In this document: positions 6,051 through 56,534 of the stretch, piece after piece | Layout of the letters: each line of letters begins with the position of its first letter | Numbering within the stretch: the stretch's first letter is position 1 | Assembly (NCBI GenBank): GCA_937864225.1 | Contig: CALMJK010000004.1 | Location: 11,700 to 75,699 of the forward strand | DNA from: an uncultured bacterium | GTDB lineage: Bacteria; Krumholzibacteriota; Krumholzibacteriia; LZORAL124-64-63 | DNA: 64,000 nt | Reading direction: 5' to 3' | Notes under the pieces: model-generated | Database searches by the model: none | The model's input: only the letters and a program-made list of their open reading frames with translations | Told to the model about the DNA's origin: nothing | Made by a program: the position numbers and the translations under genes

Positions 6051-6094
6051 GGCGGCCGCGCGGCCCGCGGGCCGCTGACCGACAGGGGAGACCG

Positions 6095-25352: not shown

Positions 25353-26864
25353 GTGGAACGCCGCGATCCGATCCTTCCCCGGGGCCTATGGCCGCTGCTC
25401 GTGTTGCTGGCGGCGGCGGCTATCTGGGCCGCGCTGGCCGGTCGCGATGAGCGGCGCTCGCGCGTCGGTCAGGCCGGCGCCGGCACGACGCTGATCGGTA
25501 TGACGCGGGACCGCGTCGATCTCCTGGCGGTCGATCTCGCGGATCGATCGCTCGAGTTGCGCCGCGGCCCCGACGGGTGGGCGTTCACCGGCGGCTTCGC
25601 CGATCGCATCGACGCCAACCGGGCGACCGATCTCGTACGGGAGCTGTGCGAGGCCCCCGCCGTGCCCCTGCTGCCGGGCGGCGGCGAATTCGACACCGTC
25701 GGCCTGGGTCTGTCGGGACACGAGTCCGTGCGGGCGATTCTCGGGGATCAGACGGGCCGGCGCGTCGAGTTGGTCGTCGGCCTGCGCAATCCGGTGCACG
25801 ACCTCTGCTACGCCCGCGTGGCAGGCCGCGAGGGCGCATGGGGCGTGGCGCCGCGCCTGCGGGTCCTGCTTCTCTCTCTGCCCAACGCGGTGCGCCTGCA
25901 GCGCCTGTGGCCGCTCTTCGACGTGGCGGGCGCGGACAGCGTCGCGCGCCATCTTGCGGGTGCGCCGCTGCCCGACCTGTTCGCGCGCGACGCCCGCGGC
26001 GCCTGGTGGGTGCGCGCGCCCGCGGCCGGCGTCGCCGGCGAAGGCGAGGGGTTCGCTGCATATGCCCGCATCTACGGCGATCGGGTCGAGCGCCGGGACG
26101 GTCACGTGTGGTGGCGCGCGCGCGATCGCGCGGTGCGCGAGTGGATTTTTCAGCTCGACGACGCGGTGCTGAGCGCGTTTGGCCTGCGCGACGCGCCGAT
26201 CGAGACGTTGCGCGCCCTTGGTCTCCGCCCGCCCCGCGCGTCGGTGCACGTCGCGCTGCGAAATGGCGACGAGATCGGCGCCGACTTCGGCGCCCCGGTC
26301 AGTCCAGGGCAAGTCGCTTGTTTGCGCGATGGTCGCCCCCACGTGTTGCATGCGCCGCAGGGCGTGAGCCAGCTGGCGCAACGGCCGTTGGCGACTTTTC
26401 TGAACGTGGACGTCCTCGCGTCGGGCGTCCAGGAAGCCGACTCGCTCTGCGTGGAGCGTCCGGCTGGCGACACGCTGCTGGCCAGGCGGCAGGGGCGCGC
26501 GTGGTCGGTTGACGGGCGATCGGAGGCGGTGGCCAGGCCGACGCCGGGCGAGCTGGCGCGGGATCTCGTGCTCAGCCTGGAGAGATTGGAGATCGTCGCT
26601 CCCCTGCCGCCCACGTTGAGCCAGGAGGAAGCCTTGCGGCCGCCCTTCGGCTACGTCGTGACGGTCTGGGGCGCGGGTCGTCCGCCTGCTGGAGAAATGG
26701 CGCAGTTCGGCCTGCCGGCGACGAACGGCGGCAGGGGCGAGGCGGACTCGTCAGCGGCGGTGGCTTGGTTCCCGGCTGACGGCAAGCGGCTGCTGATCGA
26801 CCGCCAGTTCCTCGTGAGCCTGCGCAATCTGTGCCTGTCGATCGCCGGCGACGGCAGCCCCTAG
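25353..26864 (+). CDS. DUF4340-like protein (partner of GldG-type ABC systems), N-terminal membrane anchor
   Basis: GTG start with AAGGAGGA SD right after GldFG stop (ORF track frame extends upstream as overlap artifact); hydrophobic N-terminus. Confidence 0.6.
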   Translation: MERRDPILPRGLWPLLVLLAAAAIWAALAGRDERRSRVGQAGAGTTLIGMTRDRVDLLAVDLADRSLELRRGPDGWAFTGGFADRIDANRATDLVRELCEAPAVPLLPGGGEFDTVGLGLSGHESVRAILGDQTGRRVELVVGLRNPVHDLCYARVAGREGAWGVAPRLRVLLLSLPNAVRLQRLWPLFDVAGADSVARHLAGAPLPDLFARDARGAWWVRAPAAGVAGEGEGFAAYARIYGDRVERRDGHVWWRARDRAVREWIFQLDDAVLSAFGLRDAPIETLRALGLRPPRASVHVALRNGDEIGADFGAPVSPGQVACLRDGRPHVLHAPQGVSQLAQRPLATFLNVDVLASGVQEADSLCVERPAGDTLLARRQGRAWSVDGRSEAVARPTPGELARDLVLSLERLEIVAPLPPTLSQEEALRPPFGYVVTVWGAGRPPAGEMAQFGLPATNGGRGEADSSAAVAWFPADGKRLLIDRQFLVSLRNLCLSIAGDGSP

Positions 26865-33313: not shown

Positions 33314-35011
33314 TCAGCCCGCGCCCAACTCCCTCAGCCGTTGGACCTCCGGCGCGATCTGTTCGTCCTCGATGCGCGGAAAGAGGATTTCGGCCTTCCC
33401 CACCGGGCGGCCCGCCGGCAAGGGGCGCTTGCCCTCGACGCAGCCGCCGCGGAACAGATCGCTCTCCATGCCGAGCCAGGCCCACACTTTCGCAGCGGCG
33501 AACGGCGTGACCGGCGCAAGCATCAGGGTGAGCAGCCGCACGATCTGGAAGGCGACGCCCAGACTCTGGGCGCAGCGGACGGGGTCGTCCTTGCGGGTGC
33601 GGAACGGCGCGGACTCGTCGAAGTAGCGGTTTCCCGCCTTGCCGGCCTGGAACATGGCCTCGACCGCGTCCTTGAAGTCGAACGTCTGCACGCACTCCGT
33701 GAAGCGGTCCAGGCACGCGGCCACCTCGCCGATCGCGGCGCGATCGACCTGGGTCATCGCCGACTCGGACCATGACGGGACCCGCCCGTCGAAGTATTTG
33801 TGGGCGAAGGCGAAGACGCGGTTGATCAGGTTGCCGAAGTTGTTCCCCAGCTCGTTGTTGTTGCGCGCCTGGAACCCCTCCCACGAAAAATCGGTGTCGC
33901 GTGCCTCGGGCAGATTGCGCGCCAGGGCGTAGCGCAGCGCATCGGCGGGGAACTTCGCCAGGTAGTCGGGGAGCCAGACGGCGTAGCCGCGGCTCGTCGA
34001 CAGCTTGTTCCCCTCGAGGTTGAGGAACTCGTTGGCCGGCACATTTTCGGGCAGCACGTACGGCTCGCTGTGCGCCATCAGCATGGCGGGGAACATGATG
34101 GCGTGGAAGACGATGTTGTCTTTGCCGATGAAGTGGATCAGGCGCGTGTCGGCGCCCTGCCACCAGGTCCGCCAGGCCTCCGGCGCGCCTTGCTCCGCCG
34201 CCCACTCGCGGGTCGCGGAGATGTAGCCAATGGGCGCGTCGAACCAGACGTAGAGCACCTTCCCGTCGTGGTCCGGCAGCGGGACAGGCACGCCCCACGG
34301 TAAGTCGCGCGTGACGGCCCGGTCGTCGAGTCCCTGCTCGAACCAGCCGCGGCAATAGTTCAGGACGTTCTCCTTCCAGTGCGTCTTGCCGGCCAGCCAG
34401 GCCTGCAGGCGCGGTTGCCAGTCGCCAAGCGGCAGGAACCAGTGCCGCGTGGCGCGGGTCTCGGGCGAGTGTCCGCAGGTCGCGCAGCGCGGCTCGACGA
34501 GCTCGACTTGGTTGAGCGCCGTACCGCACTTTTCGCACTGGTCGCCGCGGGCTCCCGGCTTGCCGCAGCGCGGACACGTTCCCTCGACGTACCGGTCGGC
34601 GAGGAAGCGCGCGCAGGTCGCGCAGAAGAATTGGTCCGTGGTTTTTTGCTTCAGCAGACCGCGGCCATGGAGGTCGAGGAAGAAGGCACGGCTCGTTTCG
34701 GCGTGAATCGGCCGGCTCGTCTGCGAAAAATTGTCGAAGGCGATGCCCAGCGCGACGAACGAGCCACGGATCGACGCGTGGTTGCGATCCACGAACTCCT
34801 TGTACGGCACGCCGAGCGCCTCGGCGGTCTTGGTGATGGGCACGCCGTACTCGTCGGTGCCGCAGATGAACAAGACGTCGCGCCCGAGCAACCGCAGCGT
34901 GCGAACGTAGATGTCGGCTGGCAGGTAGGCACCGGCAAGATGGCCGAGGTGCAGGTCGCCGTTGGCGTACGGCAGCGCGGCGGTGACGAGCGTGCGCGGC
35001 GGTCTGGTCAA
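33314..35011 (-). CDS. metG: methionine--tRNA ligase
   Basis: HLGH and KLSTS-like motifs, Zn knuckle CPRC...CEKC, 565 aa. Confidence 0.94.
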   Translation of the reverse strand: MTRPPRTLVTAALPYANGDLHLGHLAGAYLPADIYVRTLRLLGRDVLFICGTDEYGVPITKTAEALGVPYKEFVDRNHASIRGSFVALGIAFDNFSQTSRPIHAETSRAFFLDLHGRGLLKQKTTDQFFCATCARFLADRYVEGTCPRCGKPGARGDQCEKCGTALNQVELVEPRCATCGHSPETRATRHWFLPLGDWQPRLQAWLAGKTHWKENVLNYCRGWFEQGLDDRAVTRDLPWGVPVPLPDHDGKVLYVWFDAPIGYISATREWAAEQGAPEAWRTWWQGADTRLIHFIGKDNIVFHAIMFPAMLMAHSEPYVLPENVPANEFLNLEGNKLSTSRGYAVWLPDYLAKFPADALRYALARNLPEARDTDFSWEGFQARNNNELGNNFGNLINRVFAFAHKYFDGRVPSWSESAMTQVDRAAIGEVAACLDRFTECVQTFDFKDAVEAMFQAGKAGNRYFDESAPFRTRKDDPVRCAQSLGVAFQIVRLLTLMLAPVTPFAAAKVWAWLGMESDLFRGGCVEGKRPLPAGRPVGKAEILFPRIEDEQIAPEVQRLRELGAG

Positions 35012-38161: not shown

Positions 38162-39124
38162 TCAGATGGCGGCGGGGCCCGGCCCGGACCGCAGGGAGCC
38201 CTGCCTTTTTTCCCGCTCCCCGTACTTCTCGCCCAGCACCAGGATGATCCCTCCCAGCAGCAGTCCCCCGAGCACGTCCACGACGTAGTGGTAGCGGCAG
38301 TAGACCGTGGCCATCGCCACGAGCACGAGCTGGAGCGTCGCCCAGGCGCGCAGGCACGGGACGTTTTTCCAGGCGTGCCACCACGGCACGAGGGTGGCGG
38401 CGACGTGGCTCGAGGGGAACGCCGCGCCGAGGATCGCGCCGTGCTCGTGGATCTGTCTCATGAGGCGGGTGAAGATCCAGCCCTCGACCTCGACCGGGCC
38501 GGCGCGGAAGTACTTCGGCCCCCAAACCGGGAAGAACGTGTAGAGCGTGTAGCACACGAGCATCGTCGCGCTCAGGTCGCGCACGAAGGCCAGCATCGCG
38601 GGCCAGCGCCGCGGCGCCGGGACGGCGGGCGACGCGAGCAGCAGTGCCAGCACCACGAATCCCCAGACGTAGTAGGAAAAGTAGGCCAGCTGCAGCAGCT
38701 CGTGCAGCCACGGCCAGGGCCAGGTCGTCGACCAGCCCAGGCTGGGCTGGCCGCCGAGCAGGCTCTCCTCGAGCCGGATGAACGCCGGGTCCAGCGGCTG
38801 GTGGTAGAACACGAGCCCGAGATGGGCCATTTCCGAGTAGAAGAGCGGGAAGATGAACGGCAGGTAGGTCTCGCCCAGCAGGCGCAAGGCCGCGAAGGGG
38901 CTGCGCCGGGCGAGCGGGGGGAGGAACCAGATGGCCAACGCGAGGCCCGAATGCAGCAAGAAGCCGGGCCAGGGACCGGAGGGAGGACTGGCGCCCAGGA
39001 ACGGATACAGGCCGCTGGCCAGCAGGTAAACGACGGCCCAGCGGTCGATGTCGCGGCGCGACAAGGCCAGCCGGGAGAGCCTGCGCCGGATCAGATCCAG
39101 CCCGCGTCGAGGTAAAATGCCCAC
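38162..39124 (-). CDS. PAP2-superfamily membrane protein (candidate sphingolipid head-group transferase, Aur1/IPC-synthase-like)
   Basis: Multi-TM; PSSH and RYHYVVDV PAP2 motifs; GTG start at 39124 chosen just downstream of epimerase gene (ORF track frame continues upstream as artifact). Confidence 0.65.
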   Translation of the reverse strand: MGILPRRGLDLIRRRLSRLALSRRDIDRWAVVYLLASGLYPFLGASPPSGPWPGFLLHSGLALAIWFLPPLARRSPFAALRLLGETYLPFIFPLFYSEMAHLGLVFYHQPLDPAFIRLEESLLGGQPSLGWSTTWPWPWLHELLQLAYFSYYVWGFVVLALLLASPAVPAPRRWPAMLAFVRDLSATMLVCYTLYTFFPVWGPKYFRAGPVEVEGWIFTRLMRQIHEHGAILGAAFPSSHVAATLVPWWHAWKNVPCLRAWATLQLVLVAMATVYCRYHYVVDVLGGLLLGGIILVLGEKYGEREKRQGSLRSGPGPAAI

Positions 39125-40083
39125 GTTTCGCGAAACCCCCGGGCCAGGTCGCGCTGCGGGCGCCAGGCCGTGTCCTGGCGCAAGCGCGCGCCGTCGCACG
39201 TCCAGGCGGCCGGCGCCAACCGCGCCACGACTTCGGGGTCGAGCAGACTCCAGCGCGCCGCCGCACGTCGGCCCGACTCGCCGCGTCCGGCCAGCAGCCG
39301 CAGCACGCCCACCGGCGCCACGAGCGCGCGCACGGGCCGCTGCGTCGCTTGGCGCAGGGCCTCCGCCAGGTCGTGCCAGTTCAGGCGGCGCTCGTCCGCG
39401 GCGAAATAGACGCCGTGCGCCGTCGGCGTCTTCACCAGCGCGACGGCCGCCGCGGCGCAATCCCGTCCGTCGAGCAGGGACATCTCGCGCAAGCCCCCGA
39501 CCGCCCGCACGGTCCAGCCGCGCCGTGCCCAGGCGAAGAGCCGCACGAAAGCCCGATCGCGCGGGCCGTACAAGGCTGGTGGTCGCAGGATCGCCCAGCG
39601 GAACGGCAATTGCGTGCCGAACAGGGTCTCGGCCTCCAGCTTGGATCGTCCGTAGGCGCTGATGGGCGCCGGCGGATCCGTCTCCGCGCGCGGCCGGCCC
39701 GGAACGGCCGGGCCGGCCGCGGCCAGGCTCGAGACGTAGACGAAGGCGCGCAATTCGGACGCCCGGCAGGCCGCCGCGATCAGCCGGCGCGTGGGCTCCA
39801 CGTTGCCGGCGCGATAACCCGCGGCGTCCGGCGCGTTGATCGCCCCCGCGCAGTGCACGACCGCCGCGGCCTCGGCGAGCAAGCGGTCCAGACCGTCGTC
39901 GGTCTCGCCCGGCACGACCGTGCGGACCGGCTTGCCCTGCAGCCAGCGCAGGTCGCTGGTCGGCCGCACGGCGGCCCGCACGCGCCAACCGCCCTCCAAC
40001 AGCGCGTCCACGACATGGCTGCCAAGGAAGCCCGTCGCCCCGGTGACCACGGCCAAAGGCGCGTTGGCGGCGGGAGACGTCAT
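39091..40083 (-). CDS. cerR: NAD-dependent epimerase/dehydratase family protein (bacterial ceramide reductase CerR-like)
   Basis: ATG at residue 318 of ORF 41034; VVTGATGFLGSHVV Rossmann; YxxxK (YGRSK); ATGA overlap with upstream GNAT gene stop. Confidence 0.6.
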   Translation of the reverse strand: MTSPAANAPLAVVTGATGFLGSHVVDALLEGGWRVRAAVRPTSDLRWLQGKPVRTVVPGETDDGLDRLLAEAAAVVHCAGAINAPDAAGYRAGNVEPTRRLIAAACRASELRAFVYVSSLAAAGPAVPGRPRAETDPPAPISAYGRSKLEAETLFGTQLPFRWAILRPPALYGPRDRAFVRLFAWARRGWTVRAVGGLREMSLLDGRDCAAAAVALVKTPTAHGVYFAADERRLNWHDLAEALRQATQRPVRALVAPVGVLRLLAGRGESGRRAAARWSLLDPEVVARLAPAAWTCDGARLRQDTAWRPQRDLARGFRETWAFYLDAGWI

Positions 40084-41207
40084 GTCAAAGGCTTGTCGAA
40101 GATGCGATATCTTCGGTACATCTGCGCGCCAATGCCCTCGAGGATCCGGTTCATCGGCGCATTGTCCTCGAGCACCCAGGAGCACTCGCCGCCCGTGAAG
40201 CCCAACCGGAACCCGGCCTCGAAGGTGCGCATGATCATGACGGCGTCGACGCCGCGTCCGCGATATTCGGGCAGGACCCCGAGCAACAGGCAGCGCCCGT
40301 AGTCTATCCGGCGCTTGCGCAGGATGAACGTGAGCCATCCCAGCGGCAGCAGGCGTCCGCGCAACGGCTGGAGCGCCTGATTGAAATCGGGCACCGTGAG
40401 ACAGAACCCGATGGCCTCCCCTTTCGCCTCCGCGACCAGCAGCAGATCGGGCGAGACCATCTTGCGCATGTCCTTGGCCGCGTAAGCGAACTCTTCGTCG
40501 TCCATCGGGATGAAGCCCCAATTCCGCGACCAGGCGGCATTGTAGATGCCGCGGCACAGTGCAGCCTCCTTGGCGAAGCGGCGCATATTCATGGGGCGCA
40601 CCGTGAAGGTGGCGGAGGCCAGCAGGGGTTCCATGGCCAGCCGCACGCGTTCGGGGATCCTGCGGTCGGGCGCGCTGATCCGCCAGGCGAAGAGATCGCG
40701 CGATTTGACGAGCCCGGCCGTCGCGAACTGGGCCGCGTACCAGGCCGGATTGTGGGGCATGCCGACCACCGGTCGGCCGGCCTCTCCCTCGACGAACAGG
40801 CCCAGGTAGTCGTGGTTGGTGGTGAAGTTGCAAGGGCCTCGCATCGTGCGTATGCCCCGCTCGCGCAGCCAGCCGGCGGCGGCGGCGAGCAGGTCGGCGG
40901 CGAGGTCCGGCTGATCGGGGCACTCGTAGAAGCCGAAGAAGCCGGTAGATTCGCCGGCATGGCGCAGATGGTAGCTGTCGACGCAGGCCCCCACGCGCGC
41001 GATGGGGCGGCCGGCGCCGTCGCGCGCGACCCACAATTCGGTCTCGGCGTGCTTGTGGAAGGGATTGTGCTCTCGGTCGAAGAACTTGCGCTGTTCGGTC
41101 AGGAGCGGGAAGACGACGCGCGGGTCATCGGCGTAGACATGGTAAGGAACCCTGAGAAACGCCTCGAGGTCGCGCTTCCCCTTCACGAGCCTGATCTCGA
41201 ACTTCAT
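40080..41207 (-). CDS. bcerS: GNAT-fold acyltransferase (bacterial ceramide synthase bCerS-like)
   Basis: 375 aa, GNAT-like core; located between SPT and CerR-like genes, as in characterised bacterial ceramide loci. Confidence 0.5.
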   Translation of the reverse strand: MKFEIRLVKGKRDLEAFLRVPYHVYADDPRVVFPLLTEQRKFFDREHNPFHKHAETELWVARDGAGRPIARVGACVDSYHLRHAGESTGFFGFYECPDQPDLAADLLAAAAGWLRERGIRTMRGPCNFTTNHDYLGLFVEGEAGRPVVGMPHNPAWYAAQFATAGLVKSRDLFAWRISAPDRRIPERVRLAMEPLLASATFTVRPMNMRRFAKEAALCRGIYNAAWSRNWGFIPMDDEEFAYAAKDMRKMVSPDLLLVAEAKGEAIGFCLTVPDFNQALQPLRGRLLPLGWLTFILRKRRIDYGRCLLLGVLPEYRGRGVDAVMIMRTFEAGFRLGFTGGECSWVLEDNAPMNRILEGIGAQMYRRYRIFDKPLT

Positions 41208-41285
41208 GGGCCAACTCCTCGACGGTCGTCGACCCCGGGACCGGGTGCCGTCGGGGACGCGATCCGGGACGGCGCTGCGATCGGG

Positions 41286-42500
41286 TCAGGGGACGACGCC
41301 CAATTCGCGCCCCACCTCGACCATCTTGTCCATCGCCAGGTGGACCTGGTCCTCCGTGTGCGTGGCCATCAGGCTGAGGCGGATGAGCGCGTTTCCCTTC
41401 TCCACGGCGGGAGAGATGATGGGGTTGACGAAGACCCCCTCCTCGAACAGCCGCCGACACATGACGAAGGCCACCTCGTCCGCGCCCACGACCGCGGGGA
41501 TGATCGGCGTCTGGGAGGGGCCGGTGTCGAAACCGGCGTTCTGCAGCCGTTCCATCATGATGCGGGTGTTGCGCCAGAGAGCCTCGCGGCGCCAATCCTC
41601 CTCGAGCATCACGTCGACGGCCGCGGAGACCGAAGCGACGGATCCGGGCGGCATGCTGGCGGAGAAGATCAGAGACCGGGCGATGTGGCGGATGTAGTGG
41701 ATCGTGTCGGCGTCGGAGGCGATGAAGCCTCCCACCGAGGCGAGCGACTTGCTGAAGGTGCCCATGATCAGGTGCACCCGGTCGGCGATGCCGAAGTGAT
41801 CGCAGGTGCCGCGGCCCTGCTTGCCCAGCACGCCGATGCCGTGAGCGTCGTCGCACATGACCATCGCGCCGTGCCTCGCGGCCACTTCGCAGATCTCGGG
41901 CAGCCGCGCGATGTCGCCGTGCATGGAGAAAATGCCGTCCACGACGATCAGCTTGCCGTTGTCCTCGCACGCGGCCAGGGTTTTGTCGAGCGCGACCATG
42001 TCGTTGTGCAGGTACTTGCGCGTGGTGCCGAAGCTGAGCCGGCAACCGTCGAGAATGGAGGCGTGGTCGACGCGGTCGATGATGACGCTGTCGTTGCGGC
42101 CCACGAGGGCGAAGATCACGCCCAGGTTCACCATCATGCCGGTCGAGAAGACGAGGGCGTCTTCCTTGCCGACCAGATCGGCCAGCTTGCGTTCCAACTC
42201 GACGTGGATGTCGAGCGTGCCATTCAGGAAGCGGGAACCGGCGCAGCCGGAGCCGTACTTGTCGATGGCCAGCTTGGCGGCTTCCTTGACCTTGGGGTGG
42301 TTGGTCAGGCCGAGGTAGTTGTTGCTGCCGAGCATGATGACGTCGCGGCCGTCGATGCGGACGAGGTTGGTCTGGGCCGATTCGATCACGCGGAAATAGG
42401 AGTACAACCCCGCTTTTTGCAATTCCTTGGCGGTATTGAAATTACGAACCTTTTCGAGGAGGGCCATCATGCACCGCGCCTGTTGAGGTTGGACGGCCAA
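41286..42500 (-). CDS. spt: serine palmitoyltransferase (alpha-oxoamine synthase family, PLP-dependent)
   Basis: GTFSKS PLP-lysine motif, AOS fold, N-terminal ...LLEKVRNF...GLYSYFR resembling bacterial SPT rather than BioF/Kbl. Confidence 0.7.
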   Translation of the reverse strand: MAVQPQQARCMMALLEKVRNFNTAKELQKAGLYSYFRVIESAQTNLVRIDGRDVIMLGSNNYLGLTNHPKVKEAAKLAIDKYGSGCAGSRFLNGTLDIHVELERKLADLVGKEDALVFSTGMMVNLGVIFALVGRNDSVIIDRVDHASILDGCRLSFGTTRKYLHNDMVALDKTLAACEDNGKLIVVDGIFSMHGDIARLPEICEVAARHGAMVMCDDAHGIGVLGKQGRGTCDHFGIADRVHLIMGTFSKSLASVGGFIASDADTIHYIRHIARSLIFSASMPPGSVASVSAAVDVMLEEDWRREALWRNTRIMMERLQNAGFDTGPSQTPIIPAVVGADEVAFVMCRRLFEEGVFVNPIISPAVEKGNALIRLSLMATHTEDQVHLAMDKMVEVGRELGVVP

Positions 42501-42563: not shown

Positions 42564-44254
<1,691 letters not shown>

Positions 44255-44258
<4 letters not shown>

Positions 44259-45694
44259 TCGCCAAACACCTCTGCCTCGAACACCTCGAACCGCGCGCCC
44301 GCTCGCCAGGCTTCGGGTTCGAGGCCGGCCTTGAGACTCAAGTGGTGCAGGGTGGTCGGCAGGTCCCATCCCTGCTCGGGGGCGACCTGGGGCAGGAAAA
44401 CTGCGCGCGCCCTCCCCCGCGCGAGCACGATGCCGTGCCGGCCGATTTCAATCTCCTCCGGCCCGGACACGGGTCGCAGGGGGGACAGTACCGAGATCTC
44501 CACGCGCAAGGCGGCCGTCTCCTCGGCAGAGACCGGACGGAAGCGGGGATCGCGGCTGGCGGCTGCGACGGCGTTCTCGACGACCGAGTCGGCCAGCGGC
44601 GCGACCGGTTCGATGTGCCCGATGCAGCCGCGCAGCATGCCGTTGACGGTCAGCGTCACGAAGGCCCCGCGCGGCTCGCGCAGAGACGGCCCTGGCTCCA
44701 GCCCGCGCGAGGCCGCGAAGTCCGCCGCGCGCGGCGCGCGGCGGCCCGTCGCGGTCGCCTCGACCGTCGCCCGGGCGAGCGCGAGCAGGAACGATCGCTG
44801 CGCGTCGTTCAGTTGGTCCGAGGCCTCGTCCCTCCTGGCGTGCAGGAGGATGCCCGCGTAGCTGACCGACAGCGAGAAGTCGCCGCTGCGCTCGGCGCTG
44901 CGCTCGTAGGCCACCAGTTCGCCTTCGCCCGCCGGCAGGGGCGTGCTGAGCGCCAGGGCCGCGGCGTGGATGCCGCACATCGTGATGCCGGTTTGCTGGC
45001 CATACTCGATCAGCCCGTCGGCGTCGCGCGCCAGGATGAGGTCGATCGCGCCCCGATCCAGGTCCCTCAAGCGCTCGGGCACGCGGTCGCGAAACGGCAC
45101 GTAGCCGTAATCCACCCCGTAGTGCGTGAAATCCGAGGAGACGAGGAACAGGCTGCGCCCGTCGCACCAAGGCGCGAGCGCCGCGGCGGCGCGCCGTCTT
45201 TGCGGGGGGGAGAGGGGCGGCACGAGCAGCGTCACGATCCGCAACCGGTCCCCGAAAATGGTCTGCAGGAACGGCAGCTGGATCTCTTCAGCGTGCTCCG
45301 CCGCGTGGGCGGCCTCCGCGCTGGTGAAGCCGGGCTCGCCGGCCAGGCGGTCGGCGACCTGCCGATCGACCGCGGCCTCGCCCAGGGGTGTGGCCCAGGC
45401 GTCCCAGCGCGACACCGAGACCTCCCGCAGGTTCGCGCGGTGGCTGGGGGCGAGGATGAAGACCCGGTCGTAGGCGTGCTCCTGGAGCCGGCGATAGACT
45501 CTTCCCGCCGCCGGGCCGCTGTGGGCGTAGCCGGCGTGCGGCGCGACGGCCAACAGAGGCCGTCCCGCCGGCGCGGGGGCGGAGGCGGCGCCGGGGAGCG
45601 GGCCGGCGAGGAATCCGGCGACCGTCGCGGCCAGTTCGTCCGGGCGACCCGGATACCAGGTCCCGCTCAGGATAGGGGGGCGGACCCGCGCCAA
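44255..45694 (-). CDS. fused Memo-like (AmmeMemoRadiSam system protein B) / AMMECR1 (protein A) protein
   Basis: N-terminal Memo motifs (GTWYPG, LAVAPHAGYAHSGP, ILAPSH); C-terminal AMMECR1 motifs (GAFVTLTVNGMLRGCIGHIEP, RDPRF, AVFLPQVAPEQGWD). TTG start at 45694 with GGAGG SD gives a canonical Memo N-terminus; the ORF track start 45982 would overlap the divergent STAS gene. Confidence 0.75.
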
Positions 45695-45920
45695 GGCGGC
45701 ACCTCCGGAGAGACGGGGGAGATCGGCCCGAGACCGCTGGGAATCTAGCAGGTCGCTTACGGTCCGGTCCAGATCGGGGCCGGCGCGTCGCGCGGCCCAC
45801 GCGGCAGACCGACGCGGCAGACCGGCGCTTGCCTCGGCGCCGTTTTCCGTGCATCCTGAGGGTCCCTGGGCGCCCGGGCGCGCCCCACCCGCGGCCGGGG
45901 CCGCGACGAGGAGGACCGCG

Positions 45921-46274
45921 TTGAACATCAAGCAGAAACCGAGCGGCGACATCATGGTGTTGCATCTGTCCGGCAAGATCATGGGCGGCGAGGATCACGA
46001 TCGTTTCACCACGGAGATCAAGTCGCTGATCAACCAGGGTTATGTGGACATCCTGCTCAACATGTCCAAGGTGAGCTGGATCAACTCGACCGGCCTGGGC
46101 GTGTTGGTGTCCGGCTTCCACACGCTGAGAAAGAACGGCGGCACGATGAAAATCGCCGAGGTGAGCGACCGCATCGACAACATCCTGAACGTCACCCAAC
46201 TCAAGCTGGTCTTCGAGACGTATGACAACGAAAGCAAGGCGCTGGCCTCGTACCAGCAGCAGCCGCCGAAGTAG
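45921..46274 (+). CDS. STAS-domain anti-sigma factor antagonist (paralog 1)
   Basis: TTG start with GAGGAGGA SD; conserved phospho-Ser context NSTGLG. Confidence 0.8.
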   Translation: MNIKQKPSGDIMVLHLSGKIMGGEDHDRFTTEIKSLINQGYVDILLNMSKVSWINSTGLGVLVSGFHTLRKNGGTMKIAEVSDRIDNILNVTQLKLVFETYDNESKALASYQQQPPK

Positions 46275-46313: not shown

Positions 46314-46670
46314 GTGAAGATCAAGGACAAGACCCTGGGCGGCGTCACGCTGCTCGACCTGTCGGGCAAGATCATGGGCGGCGAAGACTACGACGTGTTC
46401 CAGGGCAAGGTGAAGTCGCTGGTTGCCGAGGGAAAGATCGACCTGCTGCTCGACATGGGGGGTGTCGACTGGGTCAACTCGACGGGGTTGGGCATTCTGG
46501 TCGCGGGCTACACGACCCTGCGCAAGAACAACGGCCGCATGAAGATCTGCTGCGTCAGCCGCCGGGTGGACGACATCCTGATCGTCTCGGGGCTGAAGAG
46601 AGTGTTCGAGGTCTTCGACTCGCGGGAAGAGGCGATCGCGTCGTTCGGTCCGACGGCCTCGACGGGGTGA
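46314..46670 (+). CDS. STAS-domain anti-sigma factor antagonist (paralog 2)
   Basis: GTG start; VNSTGLG motif. Confidence 0.8.
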   Translation: MKIKDKTLGGVTLLDLSGKIMGGEDYDVFQGKVKSLVAEGKIDLLLDMGGVDWVNSTGLGILVAGYTTLRKNNGRMKICCVSRRVDDILIVSGLKRVFEVFDSREEAIASFGPTASTG

Positions 46671-47017
46671 GGATCCGCCGTCGCGACGCCGGCAAGGTCG
46701 CGGTGCTTGAGGCCGCCGGCCAACTGGCCGGCGCCGCCGACCAACGGCAGTTTCACGACACGATCCGCGGCTTGGTGGCTGAGGGGCGGCTCGAGGTCCT
46801 GATCGACCTTTCCCGCCTCACCCGGCTCAACTCCACCGGCTTGGGGGCGCTCGTGGCGGGCTACCACACCGTCGCGCGCGCGGGGGGCAGGCTCAAGCTC
46901 TGCGCTGTCAACGACCGCATCGACAGCATCCTGGCCGGCAGCGGGCTTTACAGCGTCTTTGAGGTGTTCCGGACCGAAGAAGAGGCGCTCGTCGCGTTCG
47001 CCCGGCCGCGGGTCTGA
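46667..47017 (+). CDS. STAS-domain anti-sigma factor antagonist (paralog 3)
   Basis: GTG start overlapping previous stop (GTGA); LNSTGLG motif. Confidence 0.75.
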   Translation: MRIRRRDAGKVAVLEAAGQLAGAADQRQFHDTIRGLVAEGRLEVLIDLSRLTRLNSTGLGALVAGYHTVARAGGRLKLCAVNDRIDSILAGSGLYSVFEVFRTEEEALVAFARPRV

Positions 47018-51879: not shown

Positions 51880-52965
51880 TCAGGCTGGAATCCGCAGCTC
51901 GGCTTCGATGCGCCTGGCGATCGACCGGATTTCGGACTCCGTGAGCGCGCCCTTCTTCTTGGTGTCTTCGAATTTCTCCAGCAGCGTCCGCGCGTCCTCG
52001 CGCACCGCCCGCACGAGCGGACGGAATTCCTTCCACGCCCGGTCCTGCGCCGCGCCCAGCACGGTGTCCACGTCGCGCAACGATGCCACCGCCAAGGCGC
52101 TGAGCCCCTGCTGGAGCGCGAGATCCGTCTTGCTCAAGTACCAATTGGCCTCGGCCAGGAACGAGCCGACGTTCATGTGCGAAATGTAGCTGGCGGAGTC
52201 CCGCAGCAGGCTGCGCGCCTCGCTGCGGTTGTTGCGGTCGAGCGCGTCCATCGCGCTCTGGAAAATCGCCAAGGACCGCTGCACGGGCCCGTCGAGGTTC
52301 GGTTGCGCCGTCGCCGCCACCAGAACGTCGAGCGCCTCCTCGCACGGCTGCGTCTTGCCGTCGCGGTAGAGGGTCATGACCATCGCGGCCATGGGGTCCA
52401 GGTCCTGCAGCGGATAGAGCTGTCGATATTTTTCGATCGCCAACTGCAGGCGCAGGAAGGCAGCCGTCGGGTCGCCCCGCTCGCCCAGGTCCATCTCCTG
52501 GCGGAGCGAGCCGATGCAGGCGTGCAATGTCCTGCTCGGAGAGCTTTGCTGCACGACTTCGAACAGCAGTTGGCAGTTTTCGCGGTCGTAGGCGATGTCG
52601 GACAGGCTGTGCTCTGCAATCGAGATGCGCAGATGGTGCAGCCAGTCGTACAACGTGTTGCTGCCGCGACGCAACAGCCGCACGGACCCCAAGCCGGTCT
52701 GGCGAGCCGTGTCGGTGACCTCCAGGATCTCGCCGATGTCGCGCGGCATGCCGGCCGGCCGAGCTCGCCTCGAGGCGTCGATCTCTCCGCGCTGCGTGGC
52801 CTCCGGTATGCCCTTCTTGACGGGCTTGTCCTGGGCGCGAGGGGCAGGCGCGGCGGGCCACAGCAGCCCGACGGCCAGCGTGACGAAAGCGGCGGCGGCA
52901 AGCAAGGCGGGGCGGCGCGCGGCGCGGCGCCTGCGCCAGCAACGAGCGCCAGCGGCGGTCTCCAT
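51880..52965 (-). CDS. hypothetical secreted/membrane-anchored protein (no recognisable domain)
   Basis: 361 aa, N-terminal hydrophobic anchor, ordinary composition; 11-nt gap to sulfatase-fold gene on same strand. Confidence 0.55.
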   Translation of the reverse strand: METAAGARCWRRRRAARRPALLAAAAFVTLAVGLLWPAAPAPRAQDKPVKKGIPEATQRGEIDASRRARPAGMPRDIGEILEVTDTARQTGLGSVRLLRRGSNTLYDWLHHLRISIAEHSLSDIAYDRENCQLLFEVVQQSSPSRTLHACIGSLRQEMDLGERGDPTAAFLRLQLAIEKYRQLYPLQDLDPMAAMVMTLYRDGKTQPCEEALDVLVAATAQPNLDGPVQRSLAIFQSAMDALDRNNRSEARSLLRDSASYISHMNVGSFLAEANWYLSKTDLALQQGLSALAVASLRDVDTVLGAAQDRAWKEFRPLVRAVREDARTLLEKFEDTKKKGALTESEIRSIARRIEAELRIPA

Positions 52966-53244: not shown

Positions 53245-55611
53245 ATGCCAAGTCCGATCCGGAGCCGCCAGGCTTCCCTCCGGCGCGCCGCGCCGGCCGC
53301 CGTCTGCGCTGCCCTCTGCTGCGGCGTCCTGGCGCCGGCCGCGGCCGGCGCCGCCTTGGCTGACCATCCCGTGCTGTCGGAAGTGGTCGTGCAAGTGCGC
53401 ACGACGCCGCTGACGGGCAGCAAGTATGTCGAGCTGGTCAACCCCACGGCGGTCGATCTCGACCTGTCCGACGTGCACCTCACCGACGCCACCTTCAACT
53501 CGCCGCCGACCTACTACTACGACATCGTCAAGCTCGGCGGCGCCGGCGGCGGCGGCAGCAGCGGCGATTTCCACGCCCGCTTCCCCGCTGGCGCGACGCT
53601 AGCGGCGGGCGACACGATCGCCGTCGCGATCACCGGGAGCGCGGAATACCAGGCCGCTTACGGGCGGCTGCCGGACTACGAACTGTACGAGGACGGCATT
53701 GCGCCCGATGCCGTGCCGGAGCTGGCGGCGGTGTTTCCGGGCAGCATCGGGCGCGGGCTCGGCACGGCGAACACGAACACGCCCGATCTCACCTCCGGAG
53801 GAGAGACGGTCGTGCTCTACCGCTGGGACGGCCAGAGCGACCTCGTCCAGGACCTCGATTATGTGATCTGGGGCACCGTCGTCTCGGTGCGGGTGGACAA
53901 GACCCTCGTGAGCGTGGACGGGCCGGATCCCGACACGACGCCGAGCGATTATCTGCCCGACACCTCAGTCGCGATACAGCAGGTGGTCGCGAGCGCGGCG
54001 CACAACTACGGCAATTCATTCCAGCGCCGCTCGCTCGACGAGGGGACGGAGACCGCCGCCGGCGGCAACGGCCTGACCGGCCACGACGAGACGAGCGAAC
54101 CGTTGGGCGCGACGTGGCGGATCGATCTGCCCAACAGCCCGCCGCTGGCGCCGATCGCGTTCACTCCCCCAGCGCCGATCGTCACGCGCGCCGAGGTGGA
54201 TCCCGCCCAGCCTTGGGCGGCGCAACCGATCGCCGTCGTCGCCACGGTGCTGGCCTTCGACACGGTGGAGGAGGTTTCCCTGTACTGGAGCGCGGACGGC
54301 GGCGCCTTCACGGAGGTCGCCTGCGCGCCAGGAGAAGGCAACGATTGGACGGGCCAGATCCCGGCCCAGGAGGTGGGCGTCGACGTGCGCTGGTACCTGC
54401 GCGCGACGGGCAGCGGCGGCGGCGTGGGCGTGCTGCCCGCGGCGGCGCCGCTCTACTTCAACACCTTCACGGTCCAGGATGCGCCAAATTGGCCGCCGCT
54501 GCTGCTGATCAGCGAAGTCTGCGTGCTGGGCTCGTCGAACGAGTTCGTGGAGATCGTCAACCCCGGAACGGCGGCCGTCGATCTGGGCAACTACTACCTG
54601 ACCGACGCGATCTACGCGCCTCAGTACTACTGGCGGATCGTGTTGCCCAACCCGACGCAGGCCACGGTGGGAGGCGGCGACTACACCGATTTCCACGCTC
54701 GCTTCCCGGACGGCGCGACCGTCGCGGCGGGGGACACCATCACGGTCGCCGTCGCCGGCAGCGCGGCCTTCGAGGGAGTCTACGGCTACCTTCCCGACTA
54801 CGAGTTGTTCGAGGATGGGGGCGAACCCGACGAGATCCCCGACATGCGCGAGGTGTTCCCGGGCAGCATCGTCGGCAGCACGAGCCCGTCGCTCTCCAAC
54901 GCCGGCGAGATCGTCGTGCTCTACCACTGGGACGGGGCGAGCGACCTGGTCACCGACATCGACGTGTTCCTGTGGGGCACCGCCACGAGCTACCGCTTCG
55001 ACAAGACCGGCGTGAGCATCGACGGCCCCGACGCCGACACGACGCCGAGCGCCTACCTGCCCGACACCGCGGTCGGCGCCCAGCAGCCGTTCACGACCGA
55101 GCACGCCTTCGGCGACTCCTACACGCGTGTCGACGGTGACGAGGGCGCCGAGGTCGGCAGCGGCGGCAACGGCACCTTCGGCCACAACGAGACGAGCGAG
55201 GATCTGCCGAACACGTTCGCCATACAGGCGGCATCGCCGGCCTATCCAGGCACGGGCGGTCTCGAGGGGGGAGGCGGGGTGACGCTCGTCGTCCCAGCGC
55301 GCACCTTCCTGCCGCGTTTCGGCGAGGTGTTCCCGGTGAAATTCCGCTCGCTGCTCGGTTGCCAGACCGAGGTGCGCATCTACGACCTGACGGGCCGCCA
55401 CGTCGTCACGCTGTTCGACAGCCGCTTCGACGGGATCGCGGCCACGGCGCCGGACCGTTTCACGGAGCGCCGCTGGGACGGCCGCGACGACGAGTTCGAA
55501 TTCGTGCCGGCGGGCGTCTACGTGGTGCACCTGGCCGTGACCAACGCGCGCTCCGGTGACCGGGAAACGAAGACCGCGCCCGTGGTCGTGGCCACGCGGC
55601 TGAGCGACTGA
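53245..55611 (+). CDS. secreted protein with two lamin-tail-domain (LTD)-like repeats and C-terminal T9SS/FlgD-Ig-like domain
   Basis: Signal peptide; two ~390-aa internal repeats each starting with an LTD-like motif (SEV...EFVEIVNP...VDL..YYLTD); C-terminal ...IYDLTGRHVVTL...WDGRDD...AGVYVVHL domain. Confidence 0.75.
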   Translation: MPSPIRSRQASLRRAAPAAVCAALCCGVLAPAAAGAALADHPVLSEVVVQVRTTPLTGSKYVELVNPTAVDLDLSDVHLTDATFNSPPTYYYDIVKLGGAGGGGSSGDFHARFPAGATLAAGDTIAVAITGSAEYQAAYGRLPDYELYEDGIAPDAVPELAAVFPGSIGRGLGTANTNTPDLTSGGETVVLYRWDGQSDLVQDLDYVIWGTVVSVRVDKTLVSVDGPDPDTTPSDYLPDTSVAIQQVVASAAHNYGNSFQRRSLDEGTETAAGGNGLTGHDETSEPLGATWRIDLPNSPPLAPIAFTPPAPIVTRAEVDPAQPWAAQPIAVVATVLAFDTVEEVSLYWSADGGAFTEVACAPGEGNDWTGQIPAQEVGVDVRWYLRATGSGGGVGVLPAAAPLYFNTFTVQDAPNWPPLLLISEVCVLGSSNEFVEIVNPGTAAVDLGNYYLTDAIYAPQYYWRIVLPNPTQATVGGGDYTDFHARFPDGATVAAGDTITVAVAGSAAFEGVYGYLPDYELFEDGGEPDEIPDMREVFPGSIVGSTSPSLSNAGEIVVLYHWDGASDLVTDIDVFLWGTATSYRFDKTGVSIDGPDADTTPSAYLPDTAVGAQQPFTTEHAFGDSYTRVDGDEGAEVGSGGNGTFGHNETSEDLPNTFAIQAASPAYPGTGGLEGGGGVTLVVPARTFLPRFGEVFPVKFRSLLGCQTEVRIYDLTGRHVVTLFDSRFDGIAATAPDRFTERRWDGRDDEFEFVPAGVYVVHLAVTNARSGDRETKTAPVVVATRLSD

Positions 55612-55625: not shown

Positions 55626-56534
55626 ATGCGGAAATTCACGACTCTCCTGCTCGTCTTGGCGCTCGGTCTGATGGCCCTGCCGGCCGCCGCGAGCTTCGAC
55701 AACGTGACGGTCAGCCCGCGCGCCCGCGCCATGGGAGAGGCGGGCGTGGCGGTGGCCGACGACGCCTACGCCGCTTATTTCAATCCGGCCGGCCTGGCCG
55801 CAATGGCCGACCCGCTGGTCGCCGGCAGCTACGTGCGGCCGTTCGGCATGTCGTTCACCGACTTTGCCTATCTCGGCGGTGTCCTGCCCACCGGCGGCCG
55901 CGCCGGCGTCTTCGGCCTCGGCCTGCGCCGCTTCGCCGTGGAGTACGGGGGCGTGGACCTGTCGCGCGAGACGACCTTGACGCTGGCGCACGGGCGCACG
56001 CTCTACGAGGACATGCACACGAGCATGCGCCTGGGTCTGGCCGCGAACCTCTACAACCTGAAGTATGGGCCCACGGTCGGCTCGGACGGCGCCGGCACCG
56101 ACGGCATCGACCCGGGCAGCGACACCGTGCTGGGCCTGGACGCGGGGCTGCTCGTGACGGTGCGCGAGCGCACGCGGCTGGGCGTCGCGATCAAGAACCT
56201 CAACAACCCGCAGATCGGCCTCGACCAGGAGGAAATCGGACAACGCGTGCACGGCGGTCTGGCTTACGCGCCGTACGAGGGCGTCTGGACGACGCTCGAG
56301 TTCGAGAACAGGCTGGGCCAGGACGTCGTGTACCACGGCGGCATGGAGGTCGTCATGGAGCGCGGGCTGGCGCTGCGCCTGGGCGTCGCCACGAATCCCG
56401 ACAAGCTCACCGCCGGCTTCGGCTATCGCTGGCGCGGCATGCAGATCGACTACGGTTTCTCCGGCGGCGGCGGCACCCTCGACGGCAGCCACCAGTTCGG
56501 CGTCGGCTGGGCTTGGGGTGGTGAGGCGAGGTGA
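55626..56534 (+). CDS. outer-membrane beta-barrel protein (FadL/TraF/PorV-like N-terminal motif)
   Basis: Signal peptide, ARAMGEAGVAVADDAYAAYFNPAGLA motif, alternating amphipathic strands. Confidence 0.55.
   Translation: MRKFTTLLLVLALGLMALPAAASFDNVTVSPRARAMGEAGVAVADDAYAAYFNPAGLAAMADPLVAGSYVRPFGMSFTDFAYLGGVLPTGGRAGVFGLGLRRFAVEYGGVDLSRETTLTLAHGRTLYEDMHTSMRLGLAANLYNLKYGPTVGSDGAGTDGIDPGSDTVLGLDAGLLVTVRERTRLGVAIKNLNNPQIGLDQEEIGQRVHGGLAYAPYEGVWTTLEFENRLGQDVVYHGGMEVVMERGLALRLGVATNPDKLTAGFGYRWRGMQIDYGFSGGGGTLDGSHQFGVGWAWGGEAR

Follow-up and report, generated by a model that had tools for sequence, protein, structure and literature searches.

Four co-directional genes on the minus strand of the window, a 64,000-nucleotide stretch of DNA from an uncultured high-GC bacterium, probably form an operon for de novo phosphosphingolipid synthesis. 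The genes encode an alpha-oxoamine synthase (AOS), a GNAT-type acyltransferase, an extended short-chain dehydrogenase/reductase (SDR) and a PAP2 membrane protein, and the coupled set runs from 42470 to 38162 (Table 1). An earlier note on this DNA had described four tightly coupled genes of this kind, and all four features were found where it had placed them. The ATGA overlap that it read between the GNAT and epimerase genes is present at 40083-40080, and the 34-nt overlap into the PAP2 gene is likewise present, given a GTG start codon at 39124. At the SDR/PAP2 junction, related loci have overlaps of 4-10 nt. The PAP2 protein has conserved residues from position 16 on, and its start must therefore lie upstream of the SDR stop codon. 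The AOS reading frame reaches upstream to a TTG at 42500 (41286-42500); the ATG at 42470 is the likelier start, and the 394-aa product is an exact sequence match in a public protein collection. Moreover, independent gene calls on public contigs with identical genes give products of 375, 330 and 320 aa with identical overlaps.

Table 1. Features of the putative phosphosphingolipid operon (positions in the window).
Feature	Position	Strand	Details and basis
spt, serine palmitoyltransferase-like alpha-oxoamine synthase	41286..42470	-	394 aa; Pfam, NCBIfam and PDB matches
bCerS-like tandem-GNAT N-acyltransferase	40080..41207	-	375 aa; YghO homology, AF2 model, spt linkage
CerR-like NAD(P)-dependent extended SDR	39091..40083	-	330 aa; Pfam Epimerase, motifs, E. 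coli homology
PAP2_3 (Aur1/SMS-like) integral membrane protein, candidate ceramide phospho-head-group transferase	38162..39124	-	320 aa, GTG start
spt-GNAT spacer, 78 nt, with a GAGGAG Shine-Dalgarno-like site before the GNAT gene	41208..41285	-	Sequence
ATGA stop/start overlap of the GNAT and SDR genes	40080..40083	-	Read from the sequence
34-nt overlap, SDR 3′ end and PAP2 5′ end	39091..39124	-	Holds with the GTG start at 39124

We strongly infer from its sequence that gene 1 encodes a serine palmitoyltransferase (SPT) of the Bacteroidota/myxobacterial type. The Pfam model Aminotran_1_2 matches residues 53-391 (1.5e-60), and the top NCBIfam model, NF047600 ("serine palmitoyltransferase", CFB type; 584.6 bits), is 167 bits ahead of the second, a Kbl relative (417.8); the score falls below the NF047600 equivalog cutoff of 640, as is expected for a phylum outside the seed set of that model. 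Compared with proteins of the PDB, the enzyme is far closer to the solved SPT of Sphingobacterium multivorum (442.6 bits, 54% identity) than to Kbl, BioF, HemA or cysteate acyltransferase, with at most 302 bits for Kbl/BioF-Kbl, 212 for cysteate acyltransferase, 212 for ALAS and 126 for CqsA. Its identity to E. coli Spt is 38%. According to the earlier note, best hits to BioF or Kbl would have spoken against an SPT, and it is the SPT models and structures that score best. The PLP-lysine motif GTFSKS that it had pointed out is present at residue 237 and is identical in the S. multivorum enzyme. By homology, this PLP enzyme would very probably convert L-serine and a long-chain acyl thioester to 3-ketodihydrosphingosine. 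Two points make acyl-CoA the probable thioester: this Spt belongs to the Bacteroidota/myxobacterial type, and spt has no dedicated gene for an ACP or an acyl-ACP synthetase next to it.

The cluster could instead make a related, non-canonical amino lipid, such as a sulfonolipid of the capnine type, built from cysteate, or a lipid with 1-deoxy or glycine-derived bases. Few changes are needed to switch the amino-acid substrate of AOS enzymes, the NF047600 score is under its cutoff (584.6 vs 640), and, according to the supplement of PMC11334938, 1-deoxyceramides are a demonstrated product of this enzyme set when alanine takes the place of serine. However, the AOS scores 442.6 bits at 54% identity against an authentic SPT and 212 bits against cysteate-C-fatty acyltransferase, and a C1-hydroxyl-directed Aur1/SMS-like enzyme in the operon is sensible only if the base keeps the serine-derived C1-OH. 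We consider a non-canonical product quite improbable and continue with a serine-derived long-chain base.

That base would be N-acylated by the product of gene 2, presumably a bCerS homologue according to its homology to the YghO/CC_1154 family and its synteny. The GNAT protein aligns over its full length with E. coli YghO (34% identity, 380 aligned columns, E 4e-76), which bears out the bCerS-family similarity expected in the earlier note, and the gene for YghO is found within the spt-acpR-epi-aasR locus of E. coli. YghO and Caulobacter CC_1154 (bCerS) are listed as counterparts under the N-acyltransferase gene "aca" (PMC9386255), and in this study bCerS and CerR membership was judged via the E. 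coli counterparts as named in that one paper. The AF2 model of the protein (pLDDT 94.2) has a tandem-GNAT fold, which would be compatible with acyl-CoA-dependent N-acyl transfer. Furthermore, natural AOS-GNAT fusion proteins occur (P0128 and P0251), and a Roseomonas GNAT homologue sits in a sphingolipid-type neighbourhood with genes for a PLP-dependent aminotransferase-family protein, a diacylglycerol-kinase-family protein, a CDP-alcohol phosphatidyltransferase, LptF/G-family permeases and an NTP transferase.

Gene 3 presumably encodes a CerR homologue, an extended SDR that would reduce the 3-keto group with NAD(P)H. The Pfam model Epimerase matches it at 5.5e-25, the nucleotide-binding motif GxxGxxG appears as GATGFLG at residues 15-21, and the catalytic YxxxK pair appears as Y144-GRS-K148. 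In two whole E. coli chromosomes of the plasmid collection, the only match of the window SDR at E <= 1e-8 is the spt-cluster epimerase, the counterpart of CC_1164/CerR (28% identity, E 9e-32, 316 aligned columns), and the proposal in the earlier note that the epimerase-family protein is a CerR-like reductase holds on this comparison. The E. coli cluster epimerase also matches the cluster reductases of many fetched loci (57 hits, best E 1e-38). Caulobacter CerR is periplasmic (PMC11087976), whereas an N-terminal signal peptide on the window SDR is excluded because its Rossmann motif begins at residue 15 and leaves no room for one. The order of N-acylation and reduction is disputed even in Caulobacter.

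According to the earlier note, both the gene content and the gene order match the ceramide pathway of Caulobacter. The content does: the three enzyme families and the pathway logic are common to the window and to Spt, bCerS (CC_1154, CCNA_01212) and CerR (CC_1164, CCNA_01222) of Caulobacter crescentus. The order and the single operon do not, since Caulobacter has neither, whereas in many non-proteobacterial phyla spt, bCerS and cerR commonly stand together in this compact arrangement. The E. coli B counterpart (spt-acpR-epi-aasR plus yghO) similarly combines an SPT-clade AOS, a YghO-type tandem GNAT and an extended-SDR reductase. Unlike the Caulobacter and E. coli B pathways, the window has no dedicated ACP or acyl-ACP synthetase gene beside spt; it also differs from both in its one overlapping operon, its appended PAP2_3 gene and its Bacteroidota/myxobacterial-type Spt. 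Caulobacter builds ceramide phosphoglycerate with kinase and nucleotidyltransferase-type genes (PMC11324152).

The operon lies in a core chromosomal region, and the nearest named relatives of the source are Krumholzibacteriia MAGs. In Krumholzibacteriia-like relatives the entire neighbourhood is syntenic (Memo/AMMECR1, STAS, NUDIX, Mrp, MetRS and M1 peptidase), and conservation among these relatives alone is therefore weak evidence; taken by itself, such synteny would suit four genes that are adjacent through conserved lineage genome order, with no shared pathway. However, the module recurs across many phyla in unrelated neighbourhoods and with its internal order rearranged, the genes overlap translationally, and AOS-GNAT fusions are known. 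Adjacency through lineage genome order alone, which is contradicted by the cross-phylum synteny, strikes us as extremely improbable.

The adjacency is more than chance, as it recurs in dozens of loci of many phyla and AOS-GNAT fusions also occur. Our survey from the GNAT side covered 44 well-flanked loci from many phyla. The spt gene lies within 3 kb of the GNAT gene in 40 of these, a reductase homologue is near it in 34, and all four genes are together in 11; the labels Gemmatimonadota, Eisenbacteria, Acidobacteriota and Nitrospirota are among those of the loci. From the PAP2 side, 34 distant homologues (<45% identity) had enough upstream flank; within a range of 6 kb, 23 of them have at least one ceramide gene, and about one third do not adjoin ceramide genes. 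Moreover, Bacteroides finegoldii keeps the reductase and PAP2 genes as an overlapping two-gene unit (WP_022274854 / WP_237923849). The pair overlaps as it does in the window, with spt and bCerS located elsewhere in the Bacteroides genome. Among the fetched loci, the best matches of the B. finegoldii oxidoreductase are spt-cluster reductases (40% identity, E 4e-84). The B. finegoldii PAP2 protein aligns over its full length with the window PAP2 (25% identity, E 8e-16) and matches the PAP2 proteins of Gemmatimonadota clusters at E 1.6e-22; no assigned function for it was found in the literature searched. In at least six phyla the PAP2 subfamily occurs within spt-bCerS-cerR operons, and in Bacteroides its gene forms a pair with that of a CerR-like reductase.

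The least certain step is that of gene 4, a candidate phosphosphingolipid synthase or head-group transferase according to its fold, its motifs and its gene linkage. The protein matches PF14378 with 47.5 bits against a gathering score of 27, and most of its close homologues also carry PF14360 (SMS C-terminal domain). The PSSH and HYVVD motifs noticed earlier are present at residues 237 and 279, and H240, H279 and D283 are invariant in nine PAP2 sequences, which include those of five other phylum-labelled loci and of B. finegoldii. The protein had been likened to Aur1/IPC synthase and the sphingomyelin synthases, and Aur1 IPC synthase is indeed its nearest neighbour in both sequence profile and, among solved structures, fold, followed by SMSr. 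The top profile match, Aur1, aligns over PS(S/L)H...HY(V/F)VD with its own motifs PSLH...HHYFVD, and the top two Foldseek matches are IPC synthases, at weak E values of 0.03-0.05 and TM of about 0.46-0.51. A His-His-Asp triad in PSxH and HYxxD, together with the lack of the phosphatase C1 motif KX6RP, defines the SMS/Aur1 family.

Alternatively, genes 1-3 make ceramide and gene 4 encodes a lipid phosphate phosphatase. Its substrate might be ceramide-1-phosphate or the phosphate of a sphingoid base, or the enzyme might act in the remodelling of PGP, lipid A or undecaprenyl-PP. Faint LpxE, UppP or PgpB matches are seen for the PAP2 proteins of two clusters from other phyla. The phosphatase motifs KX6RP (C1) and SRX5HX3D (C3) are absent from all 35 close and all 9 cross-phylum PAP2 homologues. 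We regard a phosphatase as unlikely, at perhaps one chance in five, and prefer a head-group transferase. In the predicted topology of this eight-helix protein, the His-His-Asp site faces the periplasmic leaflet. The enzyme would take a phospho-alcohol head group from a glycerophospholipid (PE, PG or PI), attach it to (dihydro)ceramide at the C1 hydroxyl and release diacylglycerol, as Aur1 and the sphingomyelin synthases do.

A bacterial Aur1 homologue that acts on dihydroceramide has a precedent in BT_1522 of Bacteroides thetaiotaomicron, the phosphoinositol-dihydroceramide synthase (PMC9246714). BT_1522, the yeast Aur1 IPC synthase and animal SMS/SMSr share with the window PAP2 a PAP2_3-type fold and the His-His-Asp residues in PSxH and HYxxD, and their transfer of a phospho-head group from a glycerophospholipid to ceramide is the chemistry that, by analogy, may be expected of the window protein. 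However, the window PAP2 is not an orthologue of BT_1522, as it scores 21.5 bits against the NF052609 cutoff of 480, over the catalytic region only, and it represents a separate subfamily. It is possible, at slightly less than an even chance, that the non-inositol phosphosphingolipids of bacteria, for example phosphoethanolamine- or phosphoglycerol-dihydroceramide, are made by this subfamily. It would then be a bacterial counterpart of the sphingomyelin/CPE synthases, distinct from BT_1522, that works at the periplasmic leaflet directly after ceramide reduction.

In recent work, Spt-like genes, often beside bCerS and CerR, were reported in MAGs of 38 phyla, giving a total of 40 phyla with potential producers (Ding et al., ISME J 2024, PMC11334938). 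The window resembles the clusters of that study, in which uncultured lineages carry homologues of bCerS and CerR alongside an Spt-like gene, and it would pass the same criteria. Krumholzibacteriota is not named in its main text or in the supplements searched, and the terms "PAP2", "head group" and "phosphoethanolamine" are absent from its main text. The earlier note had placed the operon in a lineage outside the classic sphingolipid producers. This placement agrees with the Krumholzibacteriia relatives, but it is no longer surprising because Spt-like genes have been reported so widely.

Both the Spt/bCerS/CerR clusters (about 40 phyla) and the Aur1-like PI-dihydroceramide synthase of Bacteroides were known already; what is new here is a PAP2 subfamily, linked to ceramide genes, that is a candidate phosphosphingolipid synthase. 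In the literature searched, the step that adds a phospho-head group to bacterial ceramides is assigned only for the Bacteroides inositol lipid. The locus adds another uncultured lineage to the predicted bacterial sphingolipid producers. Its four genes are self-contained, fit into about 4.3 kb and require neither an ACP nor an acyl-ACP synthetase, and heterologous expression of such a compact cassette should pose little difficulty. Gene 4 offers the more useful lead: its conserved Aur1/SMS-like PAP2 subfamily, physically linked to ceramide genes across phyla and to the reductase in Bacteroides, supplies a concrete candidate for the enzyme from which bacterial ceramides receive their phospho-head groups.

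The four co-directional minus-strand genes described in the earlier note, with their ATGA junction and the 34-nt overlap between the SDR and PAP2 genes, are confirmed in coordinates and overlaps, and each of the motifs GTFSKS, PSSH and RYHYVVDV that it placed in the encoded proteins is found. The GNAT gene is preceded by a 78-nt spacer that contains a GAGGAG site, and in public contigs with identical genes, the gene calls of others agree on the three downstream products and on the overlaps. A scan of the operon strand for promoters and terminators returned no signal above chance.

Positions of the features discussed (in the window unless a locus is named; L-numbers are homologous loci fetched from public genomes and contigs)
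Feature	Position	Strand	Remark
Gene 1, AOS (spt)	41286-42470	-	ATG 42470 is the likelier start; ORF reaches upstream TTG 42500
Gene 2, GNAT protein	40080-41207	-	375 aa; ORF call
Gene 3, epimerase-family SDR	39091-40083	-	330 aa; ORF call
Gene 4, PAP2 membrane protein	38162-39124	-	320 aa; GTG start
ATGA	40083-40080	-	GNAT stop and SDR start combined
EF-G, ribosomal-protein operons, SecY, RpoA	first 21 kb		
FabH-like ketoacyl-ACP synthase III	21018-22106	+	Directly 3′ of ribosomal/RpoA operon; ABC transporter pair next
MetRS	33314-35011		ORF downstream of cluster; counterpart annotated in related loci
M1-type peptidase, SDR, Zn-ribbon gene			Also downstream of cluster
cstA (carbon starvation protein)	42564-44369	-	Upstream of cluster, between Memo-AMMECR1 gene and spt
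Memo-AMMECR1 fusion	44255-45982	-	Upstream of cluster; one 575-aa ORF
Three STAS-domain (anti-sigma-factor-antagonist-like) genes in series	45849-46274, 46314-46670, 46667-47017	+	Upstream of cluster
NUDIX, Mrp/NUBPL ATPase			Upstream of cluster
Protein with lamin-tail domains (LTD)	53245-55611	+	788 aa
Sizeable ORFs with coding-like GC3	25386-26381, 51880-52965	-	No Pfam match at thresholds applied
Sizeable ORFs with coding-like GC3	55626-56534, 59074-60375, 60411-61745	+	No Pfam match at thresholds applied
Cluster PAP2s with DCFPSGHT and RYHYT(I/V)DV	L052 8353-9288; L055 9100-9975; L051 8843-9985		
Further such PAP2	L080, tblastn match 12367-11807	-	ORF
Two bCerS-like paralogues either side of CerR-like gene	L025 10001-13366; L037 6373-9683; L083 10001-13320		Myxococcaceae, Archangiaceae, Myxococcales
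Oxidoreductase-PAP2 pair, Bacteroides finegoldii	L088 (NZ_OY725910.1) 4989-6952		10-nt overlap

The window is ordinary core chromosome with a GC content of 64-73%. The nearest named homologues of its GNAT and PAP2 proteins belong to Candidatus Krumholzibacteriia MAGs, which share with the window the four-gene cluster and a large part of the flanking gene order. In the related Krumholzibacteriia-like loci L003-L005, cstA, which in the window precedes spt by 93 nt and shares its strand, is missing at that position; L005 too encodes Memo and AMMECR1 as one fusion, and L003 and L004 have two separate genes for them. Because a single STAS gene is present there in the related loci, the three STAS genes look like a local tandem expansion. 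LTD proteins also occur at the edge of L004 and L005.

In all comparisons available, gene 1 is predicted to be a serine palmitoyltransferase. Its top NCBIfam model is NF047600, the CFB-type serine palmitoyltransferase, at 584.6 bits (the curated cutoff of 640 is not reached), which leads the runner-up model, a Kbl relative, by 167 bits. Compared with solved structures, the protein scores 442.6 bits (54% identity) against the Sphingobacterium multivorum SPT, about 300 bits against the best Kbl or BioF/Kbl chains and about 280 bits against the Sphingomonas SPT; identity to the B-type Spt of E. coli is 38%. The cysteate-C-fatty acyltransferase of sulfonolipid synthesis reaches 212 bits and CqsA 126. 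Given these SPT scores, a sulfonolipid or another lipid not derived from serine is an unlikely product. The same enzyme set is reported to accept alanine too, which leads to 1-deoxyceramides (supplement of PMC11334938). According to PMC9386255, bacterial SPTs form two groups: the Rhodobacteria type uses an ACP and an acyl-ACP synthetase of its own (AcpR and AasR), and the second takes in myxobacteria. Near the cluster there is no gene for an ACP or an acyl-ACP synthetase, which fits the second group, and acyl-CoA is therefore the likely co-substrate of the window Spt.

Gene 2 appears to belong to the bCerS family. Pfam recognizes a weak C-terminal GNAT domain and no more, and NCBIfam contains no bCerS or YghO model: the window protein and E. 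coli YghO are both without a match. A tblastn search with the GNAT protein against a plasmid collection, which includes mislabelled chromosomes, gave matches in E. coli (yghO), on several Roseomonas megaplasmids and at a Streptomyces locus with an adjoining AOS gene. The pairwise match to YghO is full-length (34% identity, E 4e-76), and membership in both the bCerS and CerR families is judged through those E. coli proteins that PMC9386255 gives as counterparts rather than through the Caulobacter sequences themselves. The E. coli locus, comprising spt, acpR, the epimerase gene, aasR and a divergent yghO, is the one described in that source, where yghO (ECD_02850) and Caulobacter CC_1154 appear together as aca, the gene for the N-acyltransferase, and ECD_02852 and CC_1164 as epi, the gene for the reductase; CC_1154 is CerS/bCerS and CC_1164 is CerR (PMC11324152, PMC10865984). 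The AlphaFold model of gene 2 is a confident one (pLDDT 94.2) with a tandem-GNAT fold, and the closest solved folds are other tandem GNATs, such as a clavulanate-pathway protein, MAB_4324, a glucosamine N-acetyltransferase and MshD. The family is large: at E <= 1e-3 it numbers 7431 representatives, and at E <= 1e-30 still 1209. Among these representatives, P0128 (780 aa) and P0251 are natural fusions of an AOS with a bCerS-like GNAT, which constitute a Rosetta-stone link of the first step with the second. Another representative, P0121 (784 aa), consists of two bCerS-like units in tandem. The Roseomonas homologue has a neighbourhood of sphingolipid type: around it are genes of the PLP-dependent aminotransferase, diacylglycerol kinase and sterol desaturase families, a CDP-alcohol phosphatidyltransferase, permeases of the LptF/G family and an NTP transferase. 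A plasmid of the skin commensal Roseomonas mucosa (L087, NZ_CP025062.1, 424 kb) carries that neighbourhood with the bCerS-like gene.

Gene 3, an extended SDR with GATGFLG and Y144xxxK148, is by homology a putative CerR-type reductase. It aligns with the E. coli spt-cluster epimerase over 316 columns (28% identity, E 9e-32), and in two complete E. coli chromosomes its sole match at E <= 1e-8 is that epimerase, about 2 kb from yghO. In the reverse comparison, the E. coli epimerase picks out the reductases that the clusters of the fetched loci encode (best E 1e-38). NCBIfam contains no CerR model, and the reductases match generic SDR models alone, with HpnA at the top for both the window and the E. 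coli enzymes.

The linkage of these genes extends across phyla. When each GTDB species, represented by one genome, was scanned with an alignment of 12 GNAT-family sequences, 80 loci came up, with the labels Zixibacteria, Gemmatimonadota, Eisenbacteria, Latescibacterota, Planctomycetota, Acidobacteriota, Ignavibacteria, Myxococcaceae, Bacteroidota (including the isolate Reichenbachiella faecimaris), Binatia, Verrucomicrobiia, Nitrospirota, Anaerolineae and others. In the set of 44 whose flanks reach at least 4 kb on each side of the GNAT gene, an SPT-like gene lies within 3 kb in 40, mostly immediately upstream, a reductase homologue within 4 kb in 34, and a PAP2 homologue within 4 kb in 11; all four genes are found at one locus in 11 of the 44. 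That the four genes are neighbours through mere conserved gene order is excluded by these cross-phylum data. The reductase gene is 3′ of the GNAT gene in some loci and divergent from spt in others, and in Acidobacteriota spt is downstream of the GNAT gene; such variable internal order argues for selection on linkage and against simple inheritance of the gene order. In the three myxobacterial loci with two bCerS-like paralogues, spt and the first GNAT gene are about 450 bp apart, a distance that could accommodate a small gene. The earlier note had read the cluster as a ceramide operon, taking the AOS for an SPT rather than a BioF or Kbl enzyme, the GNAT protein for a bCerS relative and the NAD epimerase-family protein for a CerR-like reductase, and the homology of genes 1-3 together with the cross-phylum synteny supports this interpretation.

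Gene 4 is predicted from sequence and model to be a PAP2 protein of the Aur1/SMS-like kind. It matches PF14378 (PAP2_3) at 47.5 bits, with weaker matches to PF01569 and to PF14360, the sphingomyelin-synthase C-terminal domain, and a faint match, in the catalytic region alone, to the Bacteroides phosphoinositol-dihydroceramide synthase model NF052609 (21.5 bits; cutoff 480). A single-sequence PDB search gave a marginal PgpB match and nothing else, and with a profile of 35 homologues, the best solved sequence is yeast Aur1 (E 5.5e-5), AFPSSH...YCRYHYVVDV of the window protein aligning with AFPSLH...YLTHHYFVDL. The AlphaFold model (pLDDT 81.6, pTM 0.81) retrieves IPC synthases at Foldseek ranks 1 and 2, with probability 1.0, weak E values (0.03-0.05) and TM scores of 0.44-0.51. 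Invariant among the cluster PAP2s of five other phylum-labelled loci and Bacteroides are H240, H279 and D283, as well as F236-P-S-S, V274-Y275, Y280 and G287. Loss of C1 with the His-His-Asp set kept is a mark of the SMS/IPC-synthase branch.

In the main rival explanation, the PAP2 protein would be a phosphatase with ceramide-1-phosphate, a sphingoid-base phosphate, PGP, lipid A or C55-PP as its substrate. Phosphatases trail Aur1 by only about 3 Z units, and two cluster PAP2 homologues have faint LpxE, UppP and PgpB matches; however, Aur1 and SMSr come first in three methods, the cluster is without an accompanying kinase gene, and the C1 and C3 phosphatase motifs are missing, the canonical KX6RP and SRX5HX3D being absent in 35 of 35 close and 9 of 9 cross-phylum sequences. 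We prefer a head-group transferase of the Aur1/SMS kind. Cluster PAP2s of Acidobacteriota, Bryobacteraceae, Verrucomicrobiia and Nitrospirota carry DCFPSGHT and RYHYT(I/V)DV, which we take to resemble closely motifs D3 and D4 of the sphingomyelin synthases of animals. These motifs are nearer to the animal enzyme than PSSH and HYVVD of the window protein, which suggests that the cluster PAP2s fall into at least two subtypes. A positive-inside count over the eight modelled helices, which is weak evidence, places both termini in the cytoplasm and H240, H279 and D283 on the outer side of the membrane, the same side as in Aur1 and SMS. An outer-side site would fit CerR of Caulobacter, which is reported to be periplasmic (PMC11087976).

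Viewed from the PAP2 side, the linkage is also evident. In a reverse scan of metagenome contigs with a cross-phylum PAP2 alignment, 34 distant homologues (<45% identity) have an upstream flank of 3.5 kb or more, and for 23 of them one or more ceramide genes lie within 6 kb (spt in 18, GNAT in 18, reductase in 20). Where both flanks reach 3.5 kb, the same holds for 15 of 23. The reductase search located a two-gene unit in Bacteroides finegoldii, away from spt and with rnr and dusB on either side, in which the gene of a CerR-like, NAD(P)-dependent oxidoreductase overlaps one annotated as "phosphatase PAP2 family protein". The oxidoreductase is closest to the spt-cluster reductases of Cyclobacteriaceae and Reichenbachiella (40% identity, E 4e-84, and 38%, E 2e-64), and the PAP2 protein is closest to Gemmatimonadota cluster PAP2s (E 1.6e-22) and matches the window PAP2 over its full length (25% identity, E 8e-16). 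The reductase-PAP2 pairing therefore persists even where the remaining pathway genes are dispersed. Identity of this reductase with BT_0972, the published 3-KDS reductase, was considered and dropped, BT_0972 being a Tsc10/FVT-1-like classical SDR; the B. fragilis CerR reference, BF9343_4240, is a different gene. Within the searchable literature, we found no function reported for the B. finegoldii PAP2 and no mention of BT_0971 or BT_0973 in this context.

In the proposed pathway, Spt would condense serine and acyl-CoA to 3-ketodihydrosphingosine, the bCerS homologue would N-acylate the long-chain base, and the CerR homologue would reduce the 3-keto group; the order of the last two steps is contested for Caulobacter, in which the Spt/bCerS/CerR pathway was defined (PMC11087976, PMC11324152, PMC9386255). 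On specific homology and synteny, we consider these three steps highly probable. The PAP2_3 enzyme would then move a phospho-alcohol from a glycerophospholipid to the C1-OH of ceramide and release diacylglycerol, a step towards which fold, motif and linkage incline us with some reserve. BT_1522, an Aur1 homologue that makes phosphoinositol-dihydroceramide, is genetically validated (PMC9246714), and the window PAP2 is not its orthologue. Because of this difference, and because no inositol-phosphate synthase was seen close to the cluster, we speculate that phosphoethanolamine or phosphoglycerol is at least as likely a head group as phosphoinositol.

According to Ding et al., Spt-like genes, often adjoining bCerS and CerR, occur in MAGs of 38 phyla, which brings the potential producer phyla to 40 (PMC11334938). 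The window lineage is unnamed in the accessible text of that study, of PMC9246714 and of the Caulobacter pathway papers. Our literature search, of limited scope, found no description of the PAP2_3 subfamily as a recurrent fourth cluster gene or as a Bacteroides reductase partner, and no bacterial PE- or PG-dihydroceramide synthase, which is not proof of absence. The novelty of the main claim is modest, and the cluster offers a testable lead on the head-group step of bacterial phosphosphingolipid synthesis.
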